Below, in pieces: positions 58-28,019 of a stretch of DNA of 64,000 nucleotides. This stretch comes from Eledone cirrhosa. Taxonomy: Eukaryota. The translations under genes and the position numbers were made by a program. The DNA lies in assembly GCA_964016885.1 (NCBI GenBank), contig OZ024751.1, positions 3,410,001-3,474,000 on the forward strand. The letters are read 5' to 3'. Each line of letters starts with the position of its first letter. The first letter of the stretch is position 1. A model generated the notes under the pieces. That model saw only the letters and a program-made list of their open reading frames with translations. It did no database searches and was not told the origin of the DNA.

Positions 58-315
58 GTGTGTGTGTGAGTATATAATTACATATACATATGTGTGTGTG
101 TTTAATATGTATACGTGTGCGTGTTTGTGTACGTATGTGTTTTTGTGTTTGTTTATGTATATTTATGTGTGAGAGTGTGTGTATGTGTTTACTGTTTCGT
201 ACGTATGTGTGCGTGCTTTTTTTGTGTGTATTACTTACTACGCGTGTCTGTCCTGTTAACTGGGTCATGTATCGCTGTCAAAAATTTAAAAATGTATATA
301 TATATATATATATAT

Positions 316-2034
316 AATTGCTCTTCTTTGAACCTAAATTTATGGTTTGGTACTTCTGAAGTGATTGGCTGGTTCAACAAATTGGATAATAAAAACACCC
401 TAAAATTTATTCAATTTGATATTGCCAGCTACTATTCCTCCATTTCGCCTTCACTTCTCAATAATGCTCTATCTTTCGCACTTAAATATTCTGACATCAC
501 CACAGATGAACTTCACATCATCCTCACCGCACGTAAAACCATCCTAGAGTTCAACAACGAATATTGGACCAGAGCCGATACCTCTAACAACTTCGACATC
601 ACAATGGTAACATCCGATTCATCCCAATTGACTGATTTTATTGGTATCTTCATTTTGAACTCTTTGAGTCGGAAAATTCCTCAACTTCGCGGTGGAATTT
701 ATCGTGACGATGGACTCTTTACTATCCTAAATTGCAATATAGTTAACCTTAATATTATTAAGAACAATATACGTAATCTCTTTAACCAACATAACCTAAA
801 AATTGAATTTGATAATAGTATCAAACTAGCTAATTTCTTGGATGTATCTCTTAATCTTGACACTGGCCTATATTACCCTTACCATAAAAACAATGAGAAC
901 CTTAATTATGTTAACTTTAAATCTAACCATCCTACCAATATCAAGAATGCTATAGTTAATAATATTGGAAATAGAATATCTAACATATCTTCTAATAAAA
1001 ACATCTTTGATGCTAACGCCAATTACTATAATAACGCACTTTCTAAAGCCGGCTATCCAGATAAAATCAAATATAGTAAAGAAACAAATTCTAGAAAAAC
1101 TTACAGTAGAATAATTAATCATGACCATTCCAATAATTTTAATAAAAGACCTAGATACAAAAATATAATCTGGTATAATGCTCCTTTCTCCATCTCTATT
1201 AATAACAATATTCCTAAATTATTTTTTAGTGCCTTAAATAAATGCTTCCCTCACTCACATATCTATAGTAAAATATTTAACAAACACACCATCAAATTTT
1301 CGTATTCTACATCCTCCAATATTTCCAACATCATCTCTAAACACAACAATAAAATACTAAATACTAAATCTCTTCCTTCCAATATTGAATTTCATAATAA
1401 CAGTAATAGTACTCCCGACGTCATTGTAAACCCTAGGCTAACTTCTGTAAACCCAAATACAACGTCAAACACAACTTCGCTAAATGTTCATAATCCAACT
1501 CTAAATCAAGAAACTATTATTCCTATTATTCCTATCGCAAACAACTTCTCCAATCCAATTCCTTCTATAGATAACACTAGATCACTCATTAATAATCTCT
1601 CTAATTGCAACTGCCGCATTTAAAATAAATGTCCTCTCAACAACCATTGTCTCGATAAAAACTTAATTTATGAATGTAAAATTATAACTAGCACCAATTC
1701 CTTCACCTATTTTGGCTCCACTTCCACCTCTTTTAAAGCTCGTCTCTATAATCATCATTCATCTTTCAAATACAAACTTAAAAGAACTAACACTGCTCTC
1801 TCAGAACTCATATGGTCCTTAAAAGACAAAAACATTAAATATACCATCTTTTGGAAGAAGATTTCTCCTGCATCCTCATACTTGAACAGCTCTCTATCTA
1901 AAATCTGTAATCTCTGCCTAAATGAAAAATTTACCATTATCTCTAACCTAGATTCTATAATAAATAGACGCACAGATTTGTTTTCTATCTGCCTGCATAA
2001 ATTCCATAGAACTTTTCACAAAGTATACAGTTAA
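316..2034 (+). pseudogene. Penelope-like reverse transcriptase + GIY-YIG endonuclease, N-terminally truncated, one in-frame TAA at 1621-1623
   Basis: RT motifs FIQFDIASYY, GIYRDDGL, NFLDVSLNL and IIWYNAPFS. Reading through the TAA in frame gives CNCRI*NKCPLNNHCL, then NLIYEC...YFGST..FKARLYNH (GIY-YIG) and CNLCLNEK..NRR..SICLH, with a stop at 2032-2034. The first ~67 aa of track ORF 115..1623 are microsatellite. Confidence 0.92.
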
Positions 2035-3003
2035 TATTCAATTCTTTATCAATTTAGAATCTTTTCTCAAAGGCACATATACATACACCTCTTTAAAATA
2101 TACCCATCTACCTTACTTTAAAGGGCATTATACACTCTATAATACTTGTTTACTCATTACCCTCAAATCATAACATATACATCTGTTGTTTTGACGTTAG
2201 AATATTCATCCGCAATCATTATTATTTTTTCTCTCTATCATAAATCTTTTTAATCTCAATTTCATCCTTAATTTATTATTTTTTTCTCCCCATCAACGAA
2301 CTCATTATTAATACATATTAACTCTTTATTCGCATATATTATCAATTCAATCAATATACAAACTTTAACTTCACATTATTTTTCTCAAATCCTTCTACAC
2401 ACAAACCTTAATAATTTTTCTCTTCGTTAATTTTGAAATTGCCACAATACATACATTTCTTTTTTTGACGTTAGAATATTCATCCACAATTATTATTTGT
2501 TTCTCTCTATCTTCATACATAATTTCCCTTCGTTAATTTTCAAATTCCTTTAATTTATACATTATCTTCCAACGGTTCCCAACCTCTCTATGTTAAAACA
2601 ATATATCTTTTTCTCAGTTATAAAAACTATCTCTTTCTCTCTATCACCCATCTCTCCCTCTCCACCTTCACTCTCATCTCCTCCCCCTTTTTTTCATCCC
2701 CCCCTCCATAAATAAAATATTTTTTCAAAATTTTTAATTTATACAGTATTCTCCAACGGTTTTCAACCTCTCTATGCAAAAAATATATCTCCTCTCAGTT
2801 ATAAAAACTATCTCTTTCTCTCTATCACCCATCTCTCCCTCTCATCTCCTTCCCTTTTCATCCTTTACCCCCCCCCCCCCACCCCCTCTCTAAATAAAAT
2901 ATTTTTCCCAATATCACACATCAATCTAAAACCACTTTTCATGTGTTGATTTAAAACTGCACTATCCACAAGTGTTTTTTAGTCTCCATATCATGTTCTC
3001 CTG

Positions 3004-3070
3004 TTTTATCTGATGAAAACACAAATATTATTGCATGATGATGTTTGTTTTTGAAATGCGCATAATAAAA
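3004..3070 (+). ncRNA. Minimal type I hammerhead ribozyme, canonical core
   Basis: TTTTAT-CTGATGA(3010-3016)-36-nt stem-loop II-GAAA(3053-3056)-TGCGCA palindrome-TA-ATAAAA. Stem I is TTTTAT/ATAAAA; cleavage triplet AUA. Confidence 0.85.
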
Positions 3071-3329
3071 TACATGGAACTCCTTTAACCATCTTTTGAT
3101 CTTATATATTTATATATATATATATATTTTTTTTTTCTTATTTTTATTTGCGTGTGCGAATATGTAGAGGAGTGCATTCATGTATGTGTATGTATGTACG
3201 TTTTCTATGTTTGTGTGAATGTATGTATGTGCGTATATATATGTGTGTGTATGGCTATGTTTGTGTATGTGTATGCTTGTACACACACATGCGTATGTGT
3301 GTGTATGTGTGTGTGTGTGTATATGTATA

Positions 3330-3512: not shown

Positions 3513-3516
<4 letters not shown>

Positions 3517-4336
3517 TAGGTATGATACATTTTATTACTAATTATATCTAAATGTTTCTTCTCTCTTCATAATGTATTTTTAACTCTGATACTGGTTCAG
3601 TCTGGTTCAAACTGAATTGGTCTGTCCCAGTCATTCATTGAGCAACATCGGTGAAGTTGGCACCCTTAACTCACAGTTGGGTGCGGATGCATTCATGTAT
3701 ATATGTGTGTGTCCGCATGTATCTGTGTGTTTTTAAATATATTAATAACTCCCTCTGGTCGAGCAATCTTTGAAGTGTGGGGACAACTAACTGGAAAGCT
3801 TCCATTACTCATACTTCTCGCCTTCTTCACTACCTCTTCTGCGGCCTCGATATGAATACCCCCTCCGCCTCCGTGGTATTTTCTTCGTGGTTATAAGAGG
3901 CTTAGCTCTGTTTCTCGACCGTTATATCGCGTGACTATCTCCCCCTCCGCCTTTTGGGATTCTTTCTCACGTCGTGTAGACGCGTTCTTGAGACTAGTAA
4001 AATGAGGTATCCTCTTGATAAGTCGGCAGACCTCGCAAGGACTCTATATCTTTGATATATTGTTTTTGTTTATGCCACGAAACTACGTAGTCGAGGAATT
4101 TAGGAACAGTTTAGGTATGATACATTTTATTACTAATTATATCTAAATGTTTCTTCTCTCTTCATAATGTATTTTTAACTCTGATACTGGTTCAGTCTGG
4201 TTCAAACTGAATTGGTCTGTCCCAGTCATTCATTGAGCAACATCGGTGAAGTTGGCACCCCTTAACTCACAGTTGGGTGCGGATGCATTCATGTATATAT
4301 GTGTGTGTCCGCATGTATCTGTGTGTTTTTAAATAT
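3513..4336 (+). mobile_element. Non-coding element with ~228-bp direct repeats (595-bp period) and a degenerate hammerhead
   Basis: 3513-3740 recurs essentially identically at 4108-4336. A hammerhead-like fold lies just before the second repeat. Microsatellites flank both ends. Confidence 0.7.
4010..4097 (+). ncRNA. Degenerate minimal hammerhead ribozyme
   Basis: TCCTC-TTGATAA (2 changes from CTGATGA)-GT(C)GGCA...TGCCAC-GAAA-CTACGTAG palindrome-TC-GAGGA. Confidence 0.65.
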
Positions 4337-4558
4337 ATATATAATATATATATATATATGTACACATATATATATATGTGTGTGGATATGTGCGTGTGTG
4401 TGTGTGTGCGTGTGCGTGTGCGTGTGTGTGTGTGTGTGCGTGTGTGCGTGTGTGTATATGTATTAATGTATGTATGTGTATATGTGTGTATATATGTGCT
4501 TGTGTAGGTAAGTGTACGTTTTTTATATATATGTGTGTATGTGTATGTGTGAATGCGT

Positions 4559-4610
<52 letters not shown>

Positions 4611-4760
4611 AAGTATGCTTTTGGTTTTTTTGTGTGTGTGTTTGCACGCGTCGTTTTATTTTATTTTATTTTTCCTTTCCTTCTCCCTTCTCCAGCCTCA
4701 CTTTCATATAGATTGTATTTTTTGGTTTGTAATCCAAATTCAATAAACAAACCAGCTTTT

Positions 4761-4819
4761 TTCCCGTTCTGAGGATTGAAAGCAAAACCTTTGCTTTAAG
4801 AAACCACTGGTAAATGGAA
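4761..4819 (+). ncRNA. Minimal type I hammerhead ribozyme, canonical core
   Basis: CCGTT-CTGAGGA(4769-4775)-stem II AAAGCAAA/TTTGCTTT-GAAA(4800-4803)-CCACTGG-TA-AATGG; cleavage triplet GUA. Confidence 0.8.
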
Positions 4820-4997
4820 TAATTGCCTTATGTTGTTTATTACATAATATAATAATATATATATATATATATAATATATACATATATATATATAATATAT
4901 ATATATAATATAATATATACATATATATATATATATATATAATATATACATATATATATATATATAATATATATATATATATATAATATATACATAT

Positions 4998-5481: not shown

Positions 5482-6239
5482 GGAACGCTGTACTAGTTTC
5501 AAGCTTGTTAGCTATCGTCAAAAAGTAACGAGCTTGAAACTAGTACAGCGTTCCATTGTCAGTGTCGAACAAACGAGCAACGGTGGTTGCTAGACACTAC
5601 GGCTTAATACGGGATGTTTGTTTACAAACACACCGAGCATTATAATAAATGTTTGGTGAATCCATACGTACATATATATATGTGTGCATGTATGTATATA
5701 TATATACATACTACTGTGCGTCTGTATACATATATCTATGTACGTATACATACTTATATTTAAGTAACAGCCGTACTAAGAGTGGGAAATGAAATTCCGT
5801 TTCATTTTTTCCGTTTATCGTTTTCGGTGCACCCGGCCGATTAACCCACTCGATATGCAAATTGAGCTACTCAGCCGTTAATATGCATAAGGAATGTATA
5901 TCCTTTCGGATGTTCAACTATCTGGCAGGAAGATATACGTTGCTGACGATAGCTAACAAGCTTGAAACTAGTACACCGTTTCTTTGTCAGTGTTCAACAA
6001 ACGAGCAACGGTGGTTGCTAGACACTACGGCTTAATACGGGATGTTGTTTACAAACACACCGAGCATAATAATAAATGTTTGGCGAATCCATACGTACAT
6101 ATATATATGTGTGCATGTATGTATATATATATACATACTACTGTACGTCTGTATACATATATGTATGTACGTATACATACTTATATTTAAGTAACAGCCT
6201 TACTAAGAGTGGGAAATGAAATTTCGTTTCATTTTTTCC

Positions 6240-6241
<2 letters not shown>
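5481..6241 (+). mobile_element. Retrozyme-like element: 428-bp partial tandem repeat preceded by an inverted 40-bp hammerhead fragment
   Basis: 5531-5814 repeats at 5959-6241. 5481-5520 is the reverse complement of TGACGATAGCTAACAAGCTTGAAACTAGTACAGCGTTCC. Confidence 0.8.
5937..5979 (+). ncRNA. Minimal type I hammerhead ribozyme, canonical core
   Basis: ACGTTG-CTGACGA(5943-5949)-AGCT/AACA/AGCT hairpin-GAAA(5964-5967)-CTAG-TA-CACCGT. Sister copies read CAGCGT, which pairs fully with ACGTTG. Confidence 0.8.
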
Positions 6242-10503: not shown

Positions 10504-11024
10504 TCAAGTAAGAATATTTTCGAAACACCGAGTGGGTTTGAAATTATTAGAAATGTAAGTTTTCGCCGTATTTTGACTAAAGAAATTATCCACGACAATA
10601 CAATGGGAAGGGGCAGTGCGGTTTTAATGATGTGGGTTCGACTCCCATGTACGTCAATACTCATCTTTTTCCATTTCTCCGAGGATTCTTAACCCCTCTA
10701 TCAGGCTAAATAATTTCTTTAATTTCTATAGTCAAAATACTCGATAGCTTACATTTCTAATAATTTCTAACCCATTCGCTGTTTCGAAAATATTCTTACT
10801 TGACATTACAGTCGCTAAGTTTATAGATTCTAATTTGAATGGAAAGAAACGGGTGATGTGTTGGTGTAAATGGTATCACAGTGGTCCGGATAACTAACGA
10901 TGTGGGTTCGACTCCCATGTACGTCAATACTCATCTTTTTCCATTTCTCCGAGGGTTCTTAACCCCACTATCAGGCTAAATAATTTCTTTAATTTCTTTA
11001 GTCAAAATACGGCGATAGCTTACA
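10504..11024 (+). mobile_element. 270-bp partial tandem repeat containing a tRNA-like unit, with an inverted 85-bp copy at its 5' side
   Basis: 10629-10754 repeats at 10899-11024. 10504-10588 is the inverted copy of 10720-10803. TA tracts flank both ends. Confidence 0.7.
10855..10926 (+). ncRNA. tRNA-like sequence (pseudo-tRNA or SINE-type Pol III head)
   Basis: 72-nt cloverleaf: acceptor GATGTGT/GTACGTC, D-arm GTGTAAATGGTATCAC, T-arm GTGGG-TTCGACT-CCCAT. A- and B-box-like motifs are present, with T5 at 10936-10940. The anticodon loop CCGGATA lacks U33 and purine 37. Confidence 0.6.
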
Positions 11025-11257: not shown

Positions 11258-11614
11258 TAGTGAATGTCAAAACGGGTGATTAAAATCCTAGTCATTCAGA
11301 ACATTTAGGTAGATACATAAGTGTTGTTAGTATCATAGACATCATGTAGAGAATCAGGAGTTAAAAATATGTTATGCTTGAGAGAACACAATTACAGGGA
11401 GCACTGATTGAAAGTGTAAGAGTTACAAGCAAAAAGTACAGGCAACAAAAGTTACAAGCAAGGAAAAATGTATGATAGGATACACATAAGATATAAGATA
11501 TAAGATATCTTAGCATATTTATAATTGTATATTAAACATATATAAGTATAAATATTCTTATTACTATATTATATTATATATATATATATATATTACTATA
11601 TTATATTATATATA

Positions 11615-11803
11615 GGGCGGTGGATTGGCAGTATCGGTAGAGGGTCGGACGCCATGCTTTCCAACATAGTTACGTCACTTTACGATCTGAGTTCAAATCT
11701 CGCCGAGGTTGACTTTGCCTTTCATCCTTACGGGGTCGATAAAATAAAGTACCAGTAATGCACTGGGTAATTGCTGCCCTTGTGCCTAAAGTAGAAACAA
11801 TTA
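11615..11803 (+). mobile_element. tRNA-derived SINE (octopus-type)
   Basis: A-box TGGCAGTATCGG, B-box GAGTTCAAATC, conserved body GACTTTGCCTTTCATCCTTACGGGGTCGATAAAATAAAGTACCAG. A second copy lies at 16231. Confidence 0.85.
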
Positions 11804-14190: not shown

Positions 14191-14223
14191 ATCGAGTAGG
14201 GTGAGATAAGGTATTAACGTGAA

Positions 14224-15471
14224 ATAAACCATATAAAAAAGACAAAGTTTTCTATCCAGGTTGATGAGGGTACAAATCATAACCAAGCTATCCTTCTGGT
14301 CTATGTCAGATTCATCCATGAAGATGATATAAGGGAAGAAATGTTATTCATTAAAAGTTTGCCTGAAACTACTAATGATAAAAATATTCCATTGACTAAT
14401 TTGATCAACATTGCATCAGATGGAGCTGCAGCCATGACTGAAAAAGTGAAAGGCTTTCTTTCTAGAATTAAATCAGTTGCTCCTCACATCTTTTATATAC
14501 ATTGCATTATCCACAGACAGCATTTGGTTGCTAAGAATATTGGAGGAGACATGCAAAAAGAACTCAACACTGCCATACATGCAATTAACTTTGTCAAATC
14601 AAACTCAGTGAATAATAGATTTTTTTGTGCAATTCTGTGAAGATGAAAATTTTAAAACCCTATTGCTTCACACAGAAGTAAGATGGTTGTCAAAAGGGCT
14701 GAGCCTTGAAAGACTAGTGAATTTGTGGGAACCATTAATCAACTTTCTCATGTTCAAGTCCCAAATGACTCATTACAACTCCAAGAAGCAAGCTGATACA
14801 GCTAAGGAAATTTTGGAAAGACTTCCTGAGTTTAAATAAAAAATATTCTACCTGAGTGATATTTTTAAAACAGTGAATCTGCTTAACTTGGAGTTGCAAG
14901 GTAGAAGATCAGATTTAGTCACCTGTGCTCAGAAGATAAAAGGCTATATGGGGAAATTGACATTTTTGAAAAAAACAGTTTGAGAAAAAAATTTAGCATC
15001 ATTTCAAAATTTCAACACCACTGCTCCTACATCAGAATACATTGCTGCATGCATTGCCCATCTTGAAGGTCTTCATGTAGACTTTGAGAGAAGATACAAT
15101 GATCTATTAAAGATGAATTATCCACTCTGGTTTGTAGACCTAGAAAATTATGAGCCAGGAGATGAAAATGTTGAGTTGGCTGAAATGTTGTTGGACTTGA
15201 AAGAGAATGTAAAACTGAGAAGAGGAGTTGACAAAGAAGGCGTCTTTGCCTACATATCGATAAAGGACTCACACCCAAATACTTTTCAACATGTAGAAGC
15301 AAGCATCATTTCTTTCCCTACCACATGGATGGTGGAATCTGGATTTTCAGCTGTTGTAGATGTTTTCAGAAATAAATTAGATCTCAACAGCAGAGGAACT
15401 ATCTGAATGACTTCATCAAAATTGATTATGATATCTTGTGTCAGAAACACCAAGATCAAGGTAGTCACTAG
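14224..15471 (+). pseudogene. Disrupted Buster-type hAT transposase
   Basis: Motifs FSIQVDE, SDGAAAM, HCIIHRQHL, LLLHTEVRWLSKG, FPTTWMVESGFS and C-terminal HQDQGSH*, spread over several frames by frameshifts and stops. Confidence 0.9.
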
Positions 15472-16140: not shown

Positions 16141-16230
16141 AGTTTGTTTTTTAATGTATTGCCTTCTCTTACATTTATTCTGATTATTTTACATTATACA
16201 TACATATATATATATATATATAAATATAAA

Positions 16231-16379
16231 ACGGGGAATTGGCAGTATCGGTAGAGGGTCGGACGCATAGAGTTACGGCCCTTTATGATCTGCGTTCAAA
16301 TCCCGCCTAGGTTAACTTTGACTTTCATCCTTACGTGGTCGATAAAATAAAGTACCAGTAATGTATTGGGGTAATTGCT
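16231..16379 (+). mobile_element. tRNA-derived SINE, second copy, 3'-truncated
   Basis: Aligns by eye to 11615-11775, with an internal deletion. Confidence 0.85.
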
Positions 16380-19491: not shown

Positions 19492-20273
19492 ATGGTGGCT
19501 GCCAACTCGTTTTCGAGTACGGCCACTACTTTATATCCATGTAGGAGAACCCCTACCGATGCGCTGAACGAGTGTGACTTTTTAGTCCAGCCAGCGACTT
19601 GAAAACTCTGGTACAAACACTACACTTGTGACAATTATTGACACTTAGTGCTGGGCCCATGGTACCATGTGACGACAAGTGCAGAGAGATCTCCAGATAT
19701 AAAGCAATGCCTGTGCTGTGAAGCTTTTATAGTGAGCAAAGGCACTGCACAAAGCCAGTCCCACTCTCTTAACCAAGATGATATTTACCAAAAAGAAGAA
19801 CAAGTCAACATCATTGGATGCCATCAGGGTTGCAGGTGTTATATCAGAGTTTTCCTTCTCCTAGAATTCTGCCTTGACAAAGGCTAAGGGGTCATCTCTC
19901 CCAATATATATATATATATATATATATACTCTGGTACAAACACTACACCTGTGACAATTATTGACACATAGTGCTGGGCCCATGGTACCTTGTGACGACA
20001 AGTGCAGAGAGATCTCCAGATACAAAGCAATGCCTGTGCCGTGAAGCTTTTATAGTGAGCAAAGGCACTGCACAAAGCCAGTCCCACTCTCTTAACCAAG
20101 ATGATATTTACCAAAAAGAAGAACAAGTCAACATCATTGGATACCATCAGGGTTGCAGGTGTTTTATCAGAGTTTTCCTTCTCCTAGAATTCTGCCTTGA
20201 CAAAGGCTAAGGGGTCATCTCTCCCGGTGATTTTGGATGGCCATTGACTCTTAAGAGCTCCTTTGCTCTTTGA
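19492..20273 (-). mobile_element. RTE-type LINE 3' fragment with an internal 298-bp duplication
   Basis: Minus strand encodes a terminal C2H2 finger, [25 protein letters not shown] (~19553-19630). A short 3' UTR with the hairpin CTCGAAAACGAG follows. 19605-19902 is duplicated at 19928-20225. Confidence 0.7.
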
Positions 20274-21385
<1,112 letters not shown>

Positions 21386-22780
21386 TGACCCACTTCCTTG
21401 AGAGTAACAATATGCTGAACTCCAACCAGCATGGATTCCGTAATGGAAGGGATTGCCTGACGCAACTACTGCATCACTTTGATGACATTTTGAGAGCCTT
21501 GGGAGAGGGTTCCAACACTGATGTTATCTACCTTGATTTCAGCAAGGCCTTTGACAGGGTTGATCATAACATTCTACTGAGAAAGCTGTCCAATATTGGT
21601 GTCACTGGAAAGCTGCTGCAGTGGATCAAGAGCTTCCTGTCAAACAGAACCCAACATGTTGTAGTTGAGGGAGTCAAATCAAGCCCAGCCAAAGTCAGTA
21701 GTGGAGTCCCACAAGGCACTGTGTTGGGCCCACTTCTCTTCATCATCTATATTAATGACATCACTGATATCATCAAACACAGCAACATTAAAATTTTCGC
21801 TGATGATTCCAAGCTCCAAAAGGTCATCAATGGCGTGGATGACCGGATAAGCCTTCAGTCAGACCTACTGGCTGTTACCCAATGGGCAGAAAAGAACAAC
21901 ATGTTACTGAACGAGGACAAATTCGAACTGATCCACTTTGGAAAAGAGGATGCTCTGAAACTCCCGTACTCCCTTCCCTCCGGGGAAACTCTCGTGGCAT
22001 CTAACAACATCAGAGACTAGGGAGTAACCGTGGACAGCAACATAAGCTGGACCACGCATATAAGCAGCAAAGTTGACATGGCCCGCAGAATGTGTTCCTG
22101 GATCCTCAGAACCTTCCAGTCGAGAGATTCCCGCACCATTATCCTTCTCTTCTCTACTTTCGCCCGACCACACCTTGAATACTGTTGTCCACTGTGGTCT
22201 CCCCACACGAAACAAAGTATCATGAAACTTGAAGCTCCTCAAAGGGCAATCACGAAAAAGATAGATGGCATGTCAGACCTTGACTACTGGGGTCGATTGG
22301 AAAACCTGAAACTTTACTCACTCCAACGTCGCCGTGAGCGTTATATTATCTGCATGATGTGGAAAATGTTCCATCATCACTGCCCAAATGATGTTGGCAT
22401 CGCCTTCAAGATACACCCAAGGCTTGGGCCCCGTGCTATCCGTCCCATTCAAAAATCTAAATCGCAACTCATAACAACAATACGGCACAATTATTTCACC
22501 TCAATCGGCCCTGCTCTCTTCAACATCACACCAGGACACGTCAAAACAGAAACTGACCACTCAAAATTCAAGAAGTCTTTGGACAAATTCCTCCAAGTAA
22601 TCCCGGACAAACCACCCACACCCGGATATGTCTCCGCAAACAGTAATTCTCTTCTCGAATGGGCCATGGTGCCCAAATCCTGAATTGAAAGACTTCGCCA
22701 GGTGGTGCTATTAAGTTAGACATGGCCTGGGCCAATACTGGCCAAAACATTTCAAAGTTATTCAAAGTTATTCAAAGTTA
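21386..22780 (+). mobile_element. CR1/L2-group LINE, 5'-truncated copy 1 (RT pseudogene, premature TAG at 22018-22020)
   Basis: [28 protein letters not shown] and RPHLEYC motifs. Natural stop at 22683; tail (TTCAAAGTTA)3 at 22751-22780. Confidence 0.93.
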
Positions 22781-23021
22781 CATACATATATAAATATACA
22801 TACATATATATATATACATATATATACATACATATATATATATACATACATATACATATATATATATACATACATATATATAGATACATATATATATATA
22901 CATACATATATATATATATACATACATATATATATATACATATATATATATACATACATATATATATATATACATACATATATATATATATACATATATA
23001 TATACATACATCAATATACAT

Positions 23022-25223
23022 ACATCAAAAAGTCCTGGCAGACATTTGTGGACACTGTTACAAACATATGTGCTAAACATACCCCATTAAGAACTATAAA
23101 CAAATCTAAGAGCAGAATCCCTAGAAATAGAAAAACGCTCATCAGAAAAATTAAGAGAACGAACAAAAAAATCAACAAGCTGAAATACTGTCAGCAGCAA
23201 CACATCAACTTGATTGCCATTTCATCACTAGAGATTAAAAAACATAACCTCCAAAACAACATAATGTCCCTCATCAACAATCAGAGAAGAGCTGAAGAGG
23301 CCTGGGCCATTGAGAAGATCAAACTCAATCCCAAAGTGTTCTTTTCATTTGCAAAAAAACACAAAATCACTGGCTCTACTGTTGGCCCTCTAATTGATGA
23401 AAATGGCACTCTTCAAGACAATGCTAAAACCATGGGTGAGATACTGCAGAAACAATACTGCTCTGTTTTCAGCAATCCTGATATGGCCGATCTGGGCTGT
23501 ATCGGCGATGTTACTCCCCATTACACCTTATCGGACATAACGTTTGGCGCCCCTGATGTCTTGGCGGCAATAAAGGAAATCAAGCATAATTCAGCAGTAG
23601 GTCCCGATAGGTTCCCTGCTTGTGTCTTGAAGGCGTGTCAACACCAACTTGCTTCTCCTCTTGCCAATCTGTGGCGGAACTCACTGGATGCTGGATATGT
23701 GCCAGAAAACCTTCTATCCCAGTCTGTTGTCCCAGTTTTCAAAAAGGGAAACAAATCCCTTGCCGTGAATTACCGTCCAATCTCACTCACCTCTCATATC
23801 ATTAAGGTATTTGAGCGAGTGGTGAGATCGCGAATGACCCACTTCCTTGAGAGTAACAATATGCTGAACTCCAACCAGCATGGATTCCGTAATGGAAGGG
23901 ATTGCCTGACGCAACTACTGCATCACTTTGATGACATTTTGAGAGCCTTGGGAGAGGGTTCCAACACTGATGTTATCTACCTTGATTTCAGCAAGGCCTT
24001 TGACAGGGTTGATCATAACATTCTACTGAGAAAGCTGTCCAATATTGGTGTCACTGGAAAGCTGCTGCAGTGGATCAAGAGCTTCCTGTCAAACAGAACC
24101 CAACATGTTGTAGTTGAGGGAGTCAAATCAAGCCCAGCCAAAGTCAGTAGTGGAGTCCCACAAGGCACTGTGTTGGGCCCACTTCTCTTCATCATCTATA
24201 TTAATGACATCACTGATATCATCAAACACAGCAACATTAAAATTTTCGCTGATGATTCCAAGCTCCAAAAGGTCATCAATGGCGTGGATGACCGGATAAG
24301 CCTTCAGTCAGACCTACTGGCTGTTACCCAATGGGCAGAAAAGAACAACATGTTACTGAACGAAGACACATTCGAACTGATCCACTTTGGAAAAGAGGAT
24401 GCTCTGAAACTCCCGTACTCCCTTCCCTCCGGGGAAACTCTCGTGGCATCTAACAACATCAGAGACTTGGGAGTAACCGTGGACAGCAACATAAGCTGGA
24501 CCACGCATATAAGCAGCAAAGTTGACATGGCCCGCAGAATGTGTTCCTGGATCCTCAGAACCTTCCAGTCGAGAGATTCCCGCACCATTATCCTTCTCTT
24601 CTCTACTTTCGCCCGACCACACCTTGAATACTGTTGTCCACTGTGGTCTCCCCACACGAAACAAAGTATCATGAAACTTGAAGCTCCTCAAAGGGCAATC
24701 ACGAAAAAGATAGATGGCATGTCAGACCTTGACTACTGGGGTCGATTGGAAAACCTGAAACTTTACTCACTCCAACGTCGCCGTGAGCGTTATATTATCT
24801 GCATGATGTAGAAAATGTTCCATCATCACTGCCCAAATGATGTTGGCATCGCCTTCAAGATACACCCAAGGCTTGGGCCCCGTGCTATCCGTCCCATTCA
24901 AAAATCTAAATCGCAACTCATAACAACAATACGGCACAATTATTTCACCTCAATCGGCCCTGCTCTCTTCAACATCACACCAGGACACGTCAAAACAGAA
25001 ACTGACCACACAAAATTCAAGAAGTATTTGGACAAATTCCTCCAAGTAATCCCGGACAAACCACCCACACCCGGATATGTCTCCGCAAACAGTAATTCTC
25101 TTCTCGAATGGGCCATGGTGCCCAAATCCTGAATTGAAAGACTTCGCCAGGTGGTGCTATTAAGTTAGACATGGCCTGGGCCAATACTGGCCAAAACATT
25201 TCAAAGTTATTCAAAGTTATTCA
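23022..25223 (+). mobile_element. CR1/L2-group LINE, 5'-truncated copy 2 (RT pseudogene, premature TAG at 24809-24811)
   Basis: Complete RT domain ([21 protein letters not shown]) without the endonuclease. Natural stop at 25132; tail ~2.4 copies of TTCAAAGTTA. Confidence 0.95.
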
Positions 25224-26277
<1,054 letters not shown>

Positions 26278-26929
26278 CCCTGACGGCGGAATGTTTCACT
26301 ATATCTTCTTCGGAAAATATATTTACTCCATTCCAGAAACTAATTAGTTGGAAGTGATAATTTAGTAAGTAAGTTTATTTTATAATTTTCTTATTTTACG
26401 TCTCTCATATTATTGTTCTGCAACCCCATGCATTGAACCACAATGTTACTAAGACAAAACCTATATATTTGCTAGCATTGATATGCATCTGTATGTATAT
26501 ATATGTTACTAGATATTAATTCTTTATAATTATCTCCAAATTATTTGTCGAGCAATATTGGCCATGACTGCTGCTATGGTAGTAGGCAGGCCGCTGTCTT
26601 ATTAGCAAACCACTTTCCACTGATTGACCTCGATGTCACGTGATTGATTCTTTTTGAAATCGCCACAGACGCAGAGCCAGTGATTTTCTCAATGGCTAGG
26701 AATTCAGTCCACGCTTTGCTATTTCCTATCCACTGAATTATTTTTTAATAAGTTTCCAGAGTCCTCGCTTTGCCTGGAAACTTAGCTGAGAATAGACTTC
26801 CCTGACGACGGAATGATTCCCAATATCTTCTTCGGAAAATATATTTACTCCATTCCAGAAACTAATTAGTTGGAAGTGATATTTTATAGTAAGTAAGTTA
26901 ATTTTATAAATTTCTTATTTTACGTCTCT

Positions 26930-26932
<3 letters not shown>
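26278..26932 (+). mobile_element. Retrozyme-like element: ~132-bp hammerhead-containing direct repeats, 522-bp period
   Basis: 26278-26409 repeats at 26800-26932 around a non-coding interior, with (TA)n on both sides. Confidence 0.8.
26796..26877 (+). ncRNA. Minimal type I hammerhead ribozyme, canonical core (truncated and mutated sister at 26278-26355)
   Basis: ACTTCC-CTGACGA(26802-26808)-GGAATG...CATTCC-GAAA(26858-26861)-CTAATTAG palindrome-TT-GGAAGT; cleavage triplet GUU. Confidence 0.85.
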
Positions 26933-27011
<79 letters not shown>

Positions 27012-27087
27012 CATATATATATATATGTGTGTGTATATATATATGTATATATATGTATATATATATATATATACATACATACATACA

Positions 27088-27136
<49 letters not shown>

Positions 27137-27192
27137 GTGTGTATATATATATATATGTATATATATGTATATATATATATATATATACATAC

Positions 27193-27245
<53 letters not shown>

Positions 27246-27580
27246 CATACATACATATATATATATATATACGCAATTATGTGGAAAACGCATTTTGACA
27301 CCAGATATACCTTTAACTATACAAGGTTCAAAACAGACTTCCGCAATTCCGAGGTTATATAAATAATGTATATATACTGCACAACTATTCAAATATATCT
27401 ATCTCTTGATACCTCTCCCCTTCACCAATCCCCCAAACCACATCTACCCCATACCCACTTCACGCTTTCCATTGTCATGTTTATCCTGGTCACATTTTTT
27501 CATCCTCCATCCCACCCACTCTCTCCTCAGATTGTGTCTGCTATTGCAGGTAATTGTGTCACAAACTTTGCAGTGCTATA

Positions 27581-27673: not shown

Positions 27674-28019
<346 letters not shown>

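Follow-up and report, generated by a model that had tools for sequence, protein, structure and literature searches.

A non-coding type I hammerhead repeat inserted between (TA)n microsatellites, probably by way of a Hydra-clade PLE

What kind of element is a short non-coding sequence that carries two hammerhead motifs between microsatellites, and would it release the RNA that its architecture suggests? The question arises at positions 26278-26933 of the 64,000-nucleotide stretch of DNA analyzed here (the window), which consists of animal-like repeat DNA, with TA/CA microsatellites, LINE fragments, and a 37-bp satellite. An initial annotation described this locus as a retrozyme with hammerhead-bearing terminal repeats around a 390-bp non-coding core, and predicted a 522-nt unit RNA.

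The element (656 bases) comprises 1.25 head-to-tail units of a non-coding repeat of 522-524 bp, and forms an island between two (TA)n-type microsatellite tracts. The left flank (25218-26277), a (TA)n/(CA) microsatellite, represents the insertion target, in which a target-site duplication is unreadable; the right flank (26934-27272) is a (TA)n/(TACA)n microsatellite. The two hammerhead-bearing repeats described 522 bp apart are real: the upstream repeat (26278-26409, + strand), a 5′-truncated pseudo-LTR copy, aligns with the downstream repeat (26800-26933, +) over 134 columns, 9 of which differ (7 substitutions and one 2-nt indel); the offset between them is 522 where the hammerhead lies and reaches 524 by the 3′ end. 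The downstream repeat ends 62 nt beyond the predicted cut, with 3-4 nt (CATA) common to the flank. Private changes (26820, 26910, 26286) and family polymorphisms (26822 and the indel at 26885) both contribute to the differences between the repeats, a mix that is compatible with a circular and a linear template alike.

The core of 390 bp (26410-26799, +; GC 0.38, with 0.36 for the unit) is non-coding, as was claimed: it contains no remnant of a Penelope-like element (PLE) protein, and the longest stop-to-stop frame lying wholly within the element is 58 aa. As an ORF with RT and GIY-YIG is absent from the element, it does not qualify as an autonomous PLE, and none of 72 PLE homologue proteins matched it better than E 2.2.

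The downstream repeat carries what is, by its sequence, a type I hammerhead (26796-26877, +), a predicted self-cutting RNA motif. Stem I (26796-26801/26872-26877) and helix II (26810-26815/26851-26856) are 6 bp each, with C26809 and A26857 unpaired at the base of the latter (a C.A mismatch). The core is made up of CTGACGA (26802-26808), GAAA (26858-26861), and a GTT triplet (26869-26871), and cleavage is predicted after 26871. Loop 2 measures 35 nt and contains a cUUCGg hairpin, while the short helix III sits inside a 12-nt palindrome (26860-26871) that is also present at the upstream copy (26338-26349); the palindrome had been noticed initially, with its length understated. All features of the type I fold (the CUGANGA core, GAAA, NUH, and three helices with helix I open) were found in the downstream copy, and the upstream copy departs from them at A9. 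For 26790-26885, the centroid structure is that of the hammerhead.

A descriptor that requires helix III to be palindromic and both stem I and stem II to reach 6 bp matched 0 of 20,000 dinucleotide shuffles of the element, and 2 of 20,000 when relaxed to stems of 4 and 4 bp; the downstream hammerhead is complete, as first described. The isolated downstream hammerhead was not unusually stable relative to shuffles (z -0.38), and the Rfam hammerhead models gave no match to the element at the gathering score or at E<=10, probably on account of the long loop 2. As to the triplet, a NUH site admits U, with GUC and GUA cleaved fastest according to the available text of PMC3138052. The upstream hammerhead (26280-26355, +; predicted cut after 26349) is defective in the way first described: it reads CTGACGG (A9>G, G26286) and is cut within stem I, keeping 2 nt of the 5′ strand. 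With A9>G and a truncated stem I upstream, the locus lacks the two consecutive complete hammerheads that define an "active" element in the rule of Li et al.

The interior motifs of the initial annotation were present, and were weak. CCAAT/ATTGG occurred in 3069 of 5000 shuffles, which is chance level, and 1750 of 5000 had an inverted repeat of 7 bp without mismatch; TCACGTGA, a motif chosen after the fact, occurred in 10 of 5000. GTCACGTGA (26635-26643), an E-box-like palindrome, is a candidate promoter element; the region around it (26627-26658) is a local depth peak with no variant among the differences listed. An AT-rich hairpin (26465-26516, +) was as stable in 3 of 200 shuffles. The TTTCCAG..CTGGAAA hairpin directly 5′ of the hammerhead (26749-26784, +) has longer arms than those first given (11 bp, 26749-26759/26774-26784), and 7 of 200 shuffles fold as well. 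Donor-like GTAAGT words lie at 26365-26374 and 26889-26898, and a hairpin in the 3′ tail, considered as an RT signal, was not better than shuffles (26/200 and 41/200).

Whether the unit exists beyond this locus was addressed in public sequencing runs. A search for such runs gave 15 rows with the stretch or part of it, 3 of them with at least half of its words, with no RNA runs among those listed; the monomer (26410-26933) was then compared with 4 of the 19 listed runs (X1, X4, X8, and X17), and the rows with a small share (X5-X7 and X9-X15) do not enter the results. Matches were found in organism A (1,900 of 16,285,364 contigs in X1 and 6,865 of 12,467,656 reads in X17), organism B (74 of 8,254,286 contigs), and organism E (10 of 23,643,904 contigs, two of which, of low depth, cover the hammerhead); summed contig depth does not equal copy number. 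The head-to-tail joint 26933->26410 was recovered in 492 reads from 64 starts (X17), in 5 contigs of X1, and in 2 contigs of X4, and in none of the matches from organism E (X8). The unit thus belongs to a family of many copies, whose head-to-tail joint is shared by at least two organisms. The recurrence of this joint means that the unit closes on itself, and that the two repeats of our locus, rather than being LTR-like, arise where a partial tandem of 1.25 units (a pseudo-LTR) overlaps itself; the terminal repeats of the initial annotation therefore stand as hammerhead-bearing repeats only. No contig spanning the whole unit was among those listed.

Among the 40 of 185 differences listed, the lone variant in the catalytic core falls on the free position 7, none affects U17, and most of those in the hammerhead fall in loop 2; avoidance of the core is not significant by itself (P 0.18). 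At 26811, G>A occurs in about 30-60% of copies and would break pair 10.2-11.2, with no compensating change at 26855 among the same 40, while 26874 A>G retains a wobble pair in stem I. Loose ends in all 4 runs (24 of 328 listed) retain CTGATGAC with other starts of helix II, and their sequences show sister subfamilies that differ at this point. Some of the listed loose ends mark unlike sequence at the internal sites 26618 and 26756. Compared with the family, the locus itself has at least six near-private changes. Four of the 6 read-end pile-ups listed for X17 lie at AATT sites of the window; these are likely digest ends, and so cannot reveal ends defined by a ribozyme.

Scans of sequence collections yielded 1 match in a metagenome scan, 2 in a viral scan, 1 in a genome scan, and 0 in three further scans, and no family member. 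L001-L003 had no blastn match to the element, and the hammerhead look-alikes of L002 and L003 (1501-1563, -), on phage contigs, are antisense to a 281-aa ORF and were put down to chance; in L004, the core was absent. The literature search, which did not extend to Repbase or Dfam, where the family may already be catalogued, returned no paper on this repeat family, and the available text of PMC13282606 does not mention a hammerhead.

Would the locus release a 522-nt RNA? In predicted folds of the whole transcript, the palindromes of the two copies pair at P about 0.5, which supports the suggestion that they permit dimeric folding. The partners are swapped, however: the dimer has the downstream core forming its stem I with the upstream site (P 0.36). 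Cleavage by this intact core would then fall at 26349, and the core left opposite 26871 would be the upstream one, defective through A9>G and its truncated stem I. As a consequence, a 522-nt monomer is unlikely to arise by double cleavage without refolding or a second transcript, contrary to what was first predicted for this locus. The element at 26278-26933 is likely a decayed copy in which the dimer fold would allow at most one cut (26349), and it would be a poor source of circles, since the intact core would cut at that site and not at 26871.

The ribozyme itself is likely slow and gated, going by the same models. Its weak helix III would favor a double-hammerhead fold by way of the 12-nt palindrome, and U17 would allow an A14-U17 pair, giving an inactive form; this pair extends the helix at P 0.33-0.41, and folds that are active in the strict sense account for only about 1% of the ensemble predicted for the monomer and 3% for the dimer. 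Of 9 dimer retrozymes from Xenopus, 8 failed to cleave in vitro in the available text of Li, Clavereau & Pollet (2026, bioRxiv 10.64898/2026.07.22.740005), so activity does not follow from a hammerhead motif.

Folded as a circle, the cut-to-cut unit (26350-26871, +; 522 nt) was more stable than shuffles on the + strand only: z -3.5, with 0 of 60 shuffles folding as well, and 1 of 40 block shuffles, compared with 6 of 40 for the minus strand. Two sister units folded as circles each gave 0 of 30 shuffles as stable, with 3 of 30 for a LINE control and 11 of 30 for a transposase-like control. The signal is not specific to circles, because the 3′ region of a PLE also gave 0 of 30. Searching RNA-seq for circular junctions, as was first proposed, would not settle the matter with short reads: going by the anatomy, a ligated junction restores the exact genomic sequence, so that such reads cannot diagnose circles.

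The first 28 kb of the window contain four more hammerhead motifs (3010, 4015, 4769, and 5943). One belongs to a decayed, 5′-truncated PLE (106-3110, +), with ORF pieces at 106-2034 interrupted by one stop (1621-1623). Internal duplications mark its long 3′ UTR, which includes a hammerhead (3010-3064), again with a long helix II. Its ORF pieces have 72 homologues at 31-46% identity, and two pieces searched against Pfam gave no match. The assignment to the Hydra type relies on motifs in the window (the CxCX5C linker, CxxC, and CxH) and in the 2 of 72 homologues that were inspected, both of which have DKT and one RWK.

Two further elements are non-coding partial tandems. The one at 3514-4344 (+) has a period of 595, a hammerhead (4015-4092) with a U3-A8 core variant and a long, structured loop 2, a 5′ end 17 nt after the cut-equivalent site, and a unit circle with z -6.3. 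The other, at 5482-6240 (+), has a period of 428, a 5′ inversion, a unit fold with z -8.6, and a short hammerhead (5943-5973) with a U.U at the base of helix II. It also contains ATGCAAAT, which we take to be an octamer-like word. The remaining motif (4769-4812), with a non-palindromic helix III, lies in a short truncated end at about 4700-4855 (+). All five elements, including the one at 26278-26933, extend 40-270 nt beyond the hammerhead cut site, and the 3′ hammerhead was therefore copied uncut in each.

Several other repeats were observed in the window, whose repeat landscape gives a cephalopod-like impression. At 10504-11020 (+), a partial tandem with a 270-bp period and a 5′ inversion lies in (TA)n and includes a tRNA-like gene (10854-10927; Rfam 34.3 bits; ARAGORN Ser-GGA); this is a PLE-style footprint with a tRNA module, in which the descriptor found no hammerhead. 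Two RT-bearing LINE 3′ parts stand in tandem at 21386-25221 (+), 99.6% identical over 1387 bp, ending in a TTCAAAGTTA-type repeat and with (TA)n between them; a Pfam RVT_1 domain was detected in a LINE fragment at 23057-24811. A 297-bp direct repeat (97.6%) at 19606-20225 is split by a short (TA)n tract, and a perfect 70-bp inverted repeat at 27691-28002 surrounds (TA)n and (TG)n tracts. Transposase-like ORF fragments at 14218-15406 (+), without a Pfam match, are presumably hAT-like, going by resemblance. Two copies of a SINE-like repeat (11610-11775 and 16224-16379) are 82% identical, and a strongly A-skewed 37-bp satellite extends over 28409-63990 with 961.5 copies and 92% matches.

On the features tested, the sequence of the unit identifies it as being of the animal non-LTR retrozyme type, so the retrozyme architecture first proposed was upheld for its kind and not for its terminal repeats. 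Like the animal retrozymes in the available texts of PMC7229834 and Li et al. 2026, the unit is non-coding and head-to-tail, with a GC content below 50% and many copies, has one type I hammerhead with a weak palindromic helix III, needs no PBS/PPT, and co-occurs with PLEs. Its 522 bp fall within the 51-972 bp of the elements that Li et al. 2026, in the portion available, treat as non-autonomous PLE derivatives, and exceed the 170-400 nt given for circles in the accessible text of Cervera & de la Peña 2020 (PMC7229834), where animal retrozymes are described to yield RNA circles. The present element differs from those covered in these texts in that it has 1.25 units, lacks a canonical contact between loops 1 and 2, and is known from sequence alone. 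Plant LTR retrozymes, in the descriptions available, share the two hammerhead-bearing direct repeats that flank a non-coding middle; they have type III hammerheads, true LTRs, PBS/PPT, 4-bp target duplications, and Ty3/Gypsy enzymes, whereas our element has a type I hammerhead, an unequal partial repeat, and a microsatellite target. A plant-type LTR retrozyme is ruled out by the type I topology and the unequal repeats.

The hammerhead itself resembles those of PLEs. According to the available text of PMC4209133 (Cervera & De la Peña 2014), PLE hammerheads combine a helix II that is long with a helix III that is palindromic, insert one base behind A9, and have G10.1-C11.1; their activity is described as low and dependent on dimers, and GUU is frequent in the alignment. 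The downstream hammerhead shares the long helix II, the extra base, G10.1-C11.1, GUU, and the palindromic helix III/loop 3, and low, dimer-dependent activity would be expected of it; it differs from the minimal motifs in that text by an extra A before G12, a helix III of 3-4 bp, and an extended loop 2.

For Hydra-clade PLEs, we counted by hand 26 Hydra rows in File S2 of Craig 2021 (PMC8557442, seen in part), in which one family is listed twice. A mismatch at the base of helix II occurs in 15 of these 26 rows, U at the cut site in 10, an ACT..AGT helix III in 17, and a motif 87-210 nt from the 3′ end in 23, and (TA)n is the listed target of nearly all Hydra families. Our element shares with the Hydra-clade PLEs the helix II base mismatch, the ACT..AGT helix III, and the U at the cut site, as well as the (TA)n target, the partial tandem, the 5′ truncation, and a hammerhead near the 3′ end (about 158 nt). 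The exact C.A mismatch is also found there in PLE-X1_cBra, while U.U is usual among the Hydra PLEs covered. Loop 2 has 3-10 nt in all 26 rows, in contrast to the 35 nt with a cUUCGg hairpin here, and our element has no ORF.

These shared oddities of the motif, together with the decayed Hydra-type PLE and the three further hammerhead-bearing pieces in the window, suggest that the element is a non-autonomous PLE derivative. Four short motifs compared with the Craig 2021 supplement gave 0 matches, and the element showed no sequence similarity beyond simple repeats to the window PLE or to the other hammerhead elements, so the Hydra-clade partner is deduced only from motif type and target. We consider it probable that the element represents a many-copy non-coding type I hammerhead repeat inserted into (TA)n, as seen at this one locus, by target-primed reverse transcription with the RT and GIY-YIG endonuclease of a Hydra-clade PLE.

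Under such a mechanism, the PLE protein would act in trans and nick (TA)n, and the hammerhead sites would likely still be intact in the source RNA. The cDNA would start inside this RNA, roughly 62 nt beyond the downstream cut on its 3′ side; from there, copying would run back through one unit and stop once it had passed the upstream cut by 72 nt. Neither end of the insertion falls within the cut-to-cut unit, so a linear monomer released by cleavage and read a single time cannot have been the template. We lean slightly toward an uncut transcript longer than one unit; a 522-nt circle, re-ligated and traversed beyond a single round, is the less probable template, and a template switch that generated the 1.25 units would be a surprise. 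The only PLE to have been assayed in vitro inserted mainly from uncut RNA, and a Poseidon element from anole initiated internally on uncut RNA (PMC11167929). Reading of a circle past its junction to obtain cDNA longer than a unit has been proposed in the texts available of PMC4209133 and PMC7229834. A more specific proposal, which we hold only tentatively and think rather doubtful, is that these units are microsatellite-targeted RNA-circle parasites of Hydra-clade PLEs, whose 1.25-unit copies would result from an RT that passes more than once round the circle, and whose hammerhead would act as a gated switch; the gate here refers to the 35-nt, UUCG-capped loop 2 and the 12-nt palindrome, and may depend on protein or on dimer formation.

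Other origins were weighed against this trans-mobilized hammerhead repeat. The stretch could have come from a coding PLE, as its 3′ end (3′ UTR and pseudo-LTR) or as what an internal deletion left of it, without ever moving as a 522-bp unit. Such 5′-truncated, hammerhead-bearing PLE ends are common according to the text available of PMC4209133 and occur in the window itself (4700-4855 and 106-3110), and the unlike sequence at 26618 and 26756 in listed loose ends (24 of 328) would fit as well. We regard this as unlikely: the unit closes on itself, with its joint in 492 reads and 7 contigs from two organisms, and the element has no ORF above 58 aa and no match to the 72 PLE homologues better than E 2.2. 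The initial annotation had named the end of a coding element as the finding that would overturn it, which is the case judged unlikely here. Even less probable is a spread at the DNA level as a minisatellite, by unequal crossover or DNA rolling circle, with the hammerhead as a vestige of PLE ancestry. Arrays also give head-to-tail joints, the 37-bp satellite at 28409-63990 lies nearby, and the available part of Li et al. 2026 proposes local tandem amplification after birth from a pLTR. Against this, our copy is solitary, 1.25 units long, and set between microsatellites; two unrelated non-coding units (3514-4344 and 5482-6240) share its partial tandem build, one of them with the 5′ inversion typical of PLEs; and the folding signal is on the + strand only.

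That the locus is itself an active retrozyme, with two hammerheads that release a circularizing 522-nt monomer, seems highly improbable. Both NUH sites and palindromes are intact, the circle folds better than shuffles (0/60), and circles are made by animal retrozymes in the text available of PMC7229834, but the upstream core, with A9>G and a truncated stem I, would face 26871 in the dimer, and the locus carries at least six near-private changes. Finally, the hammerhead likeness could be due to chance in AT-rich repeat sequence, an explanation that we find barely credible: although Rfam gave no match and the fold is no more stable than shuffles, the descriptor matched 0 of 20,000 shuffles, 28 kb contain four further motifs, all of them in repeat elements whose 3′ end follows after 40-270 nt, and the motif agrees feature by feature with published PLE hammerheads.

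Non-coding hammerhead repeats mobilized in trans have already been described in many animals, so the locus itself alters little. It is useful, rather, as test material for the role of PLE hammerheads, which is debated: the texts available present them either as making circles for longer-than-unit cDNA (PMC4209133) or as dispensable for insertion in vitro (PMC11167929). A short, many-copy family that leaves both ribozyme sites uncut in its insertions makes this role testable, as the two overlapping repeats of a circle-derived copy should be identical when it inserts, including at sites that vary within the family. PLE hammerheads with long loops escape Rfam, which suggests that such families are probably under-counted. 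If these units are indeed circle parasites of Hydra-clade PLEs, the origin of pseudo-LTRs could be settled from genome sequence alone, aided by the presence, within one genome, of several families that share this build without being related.
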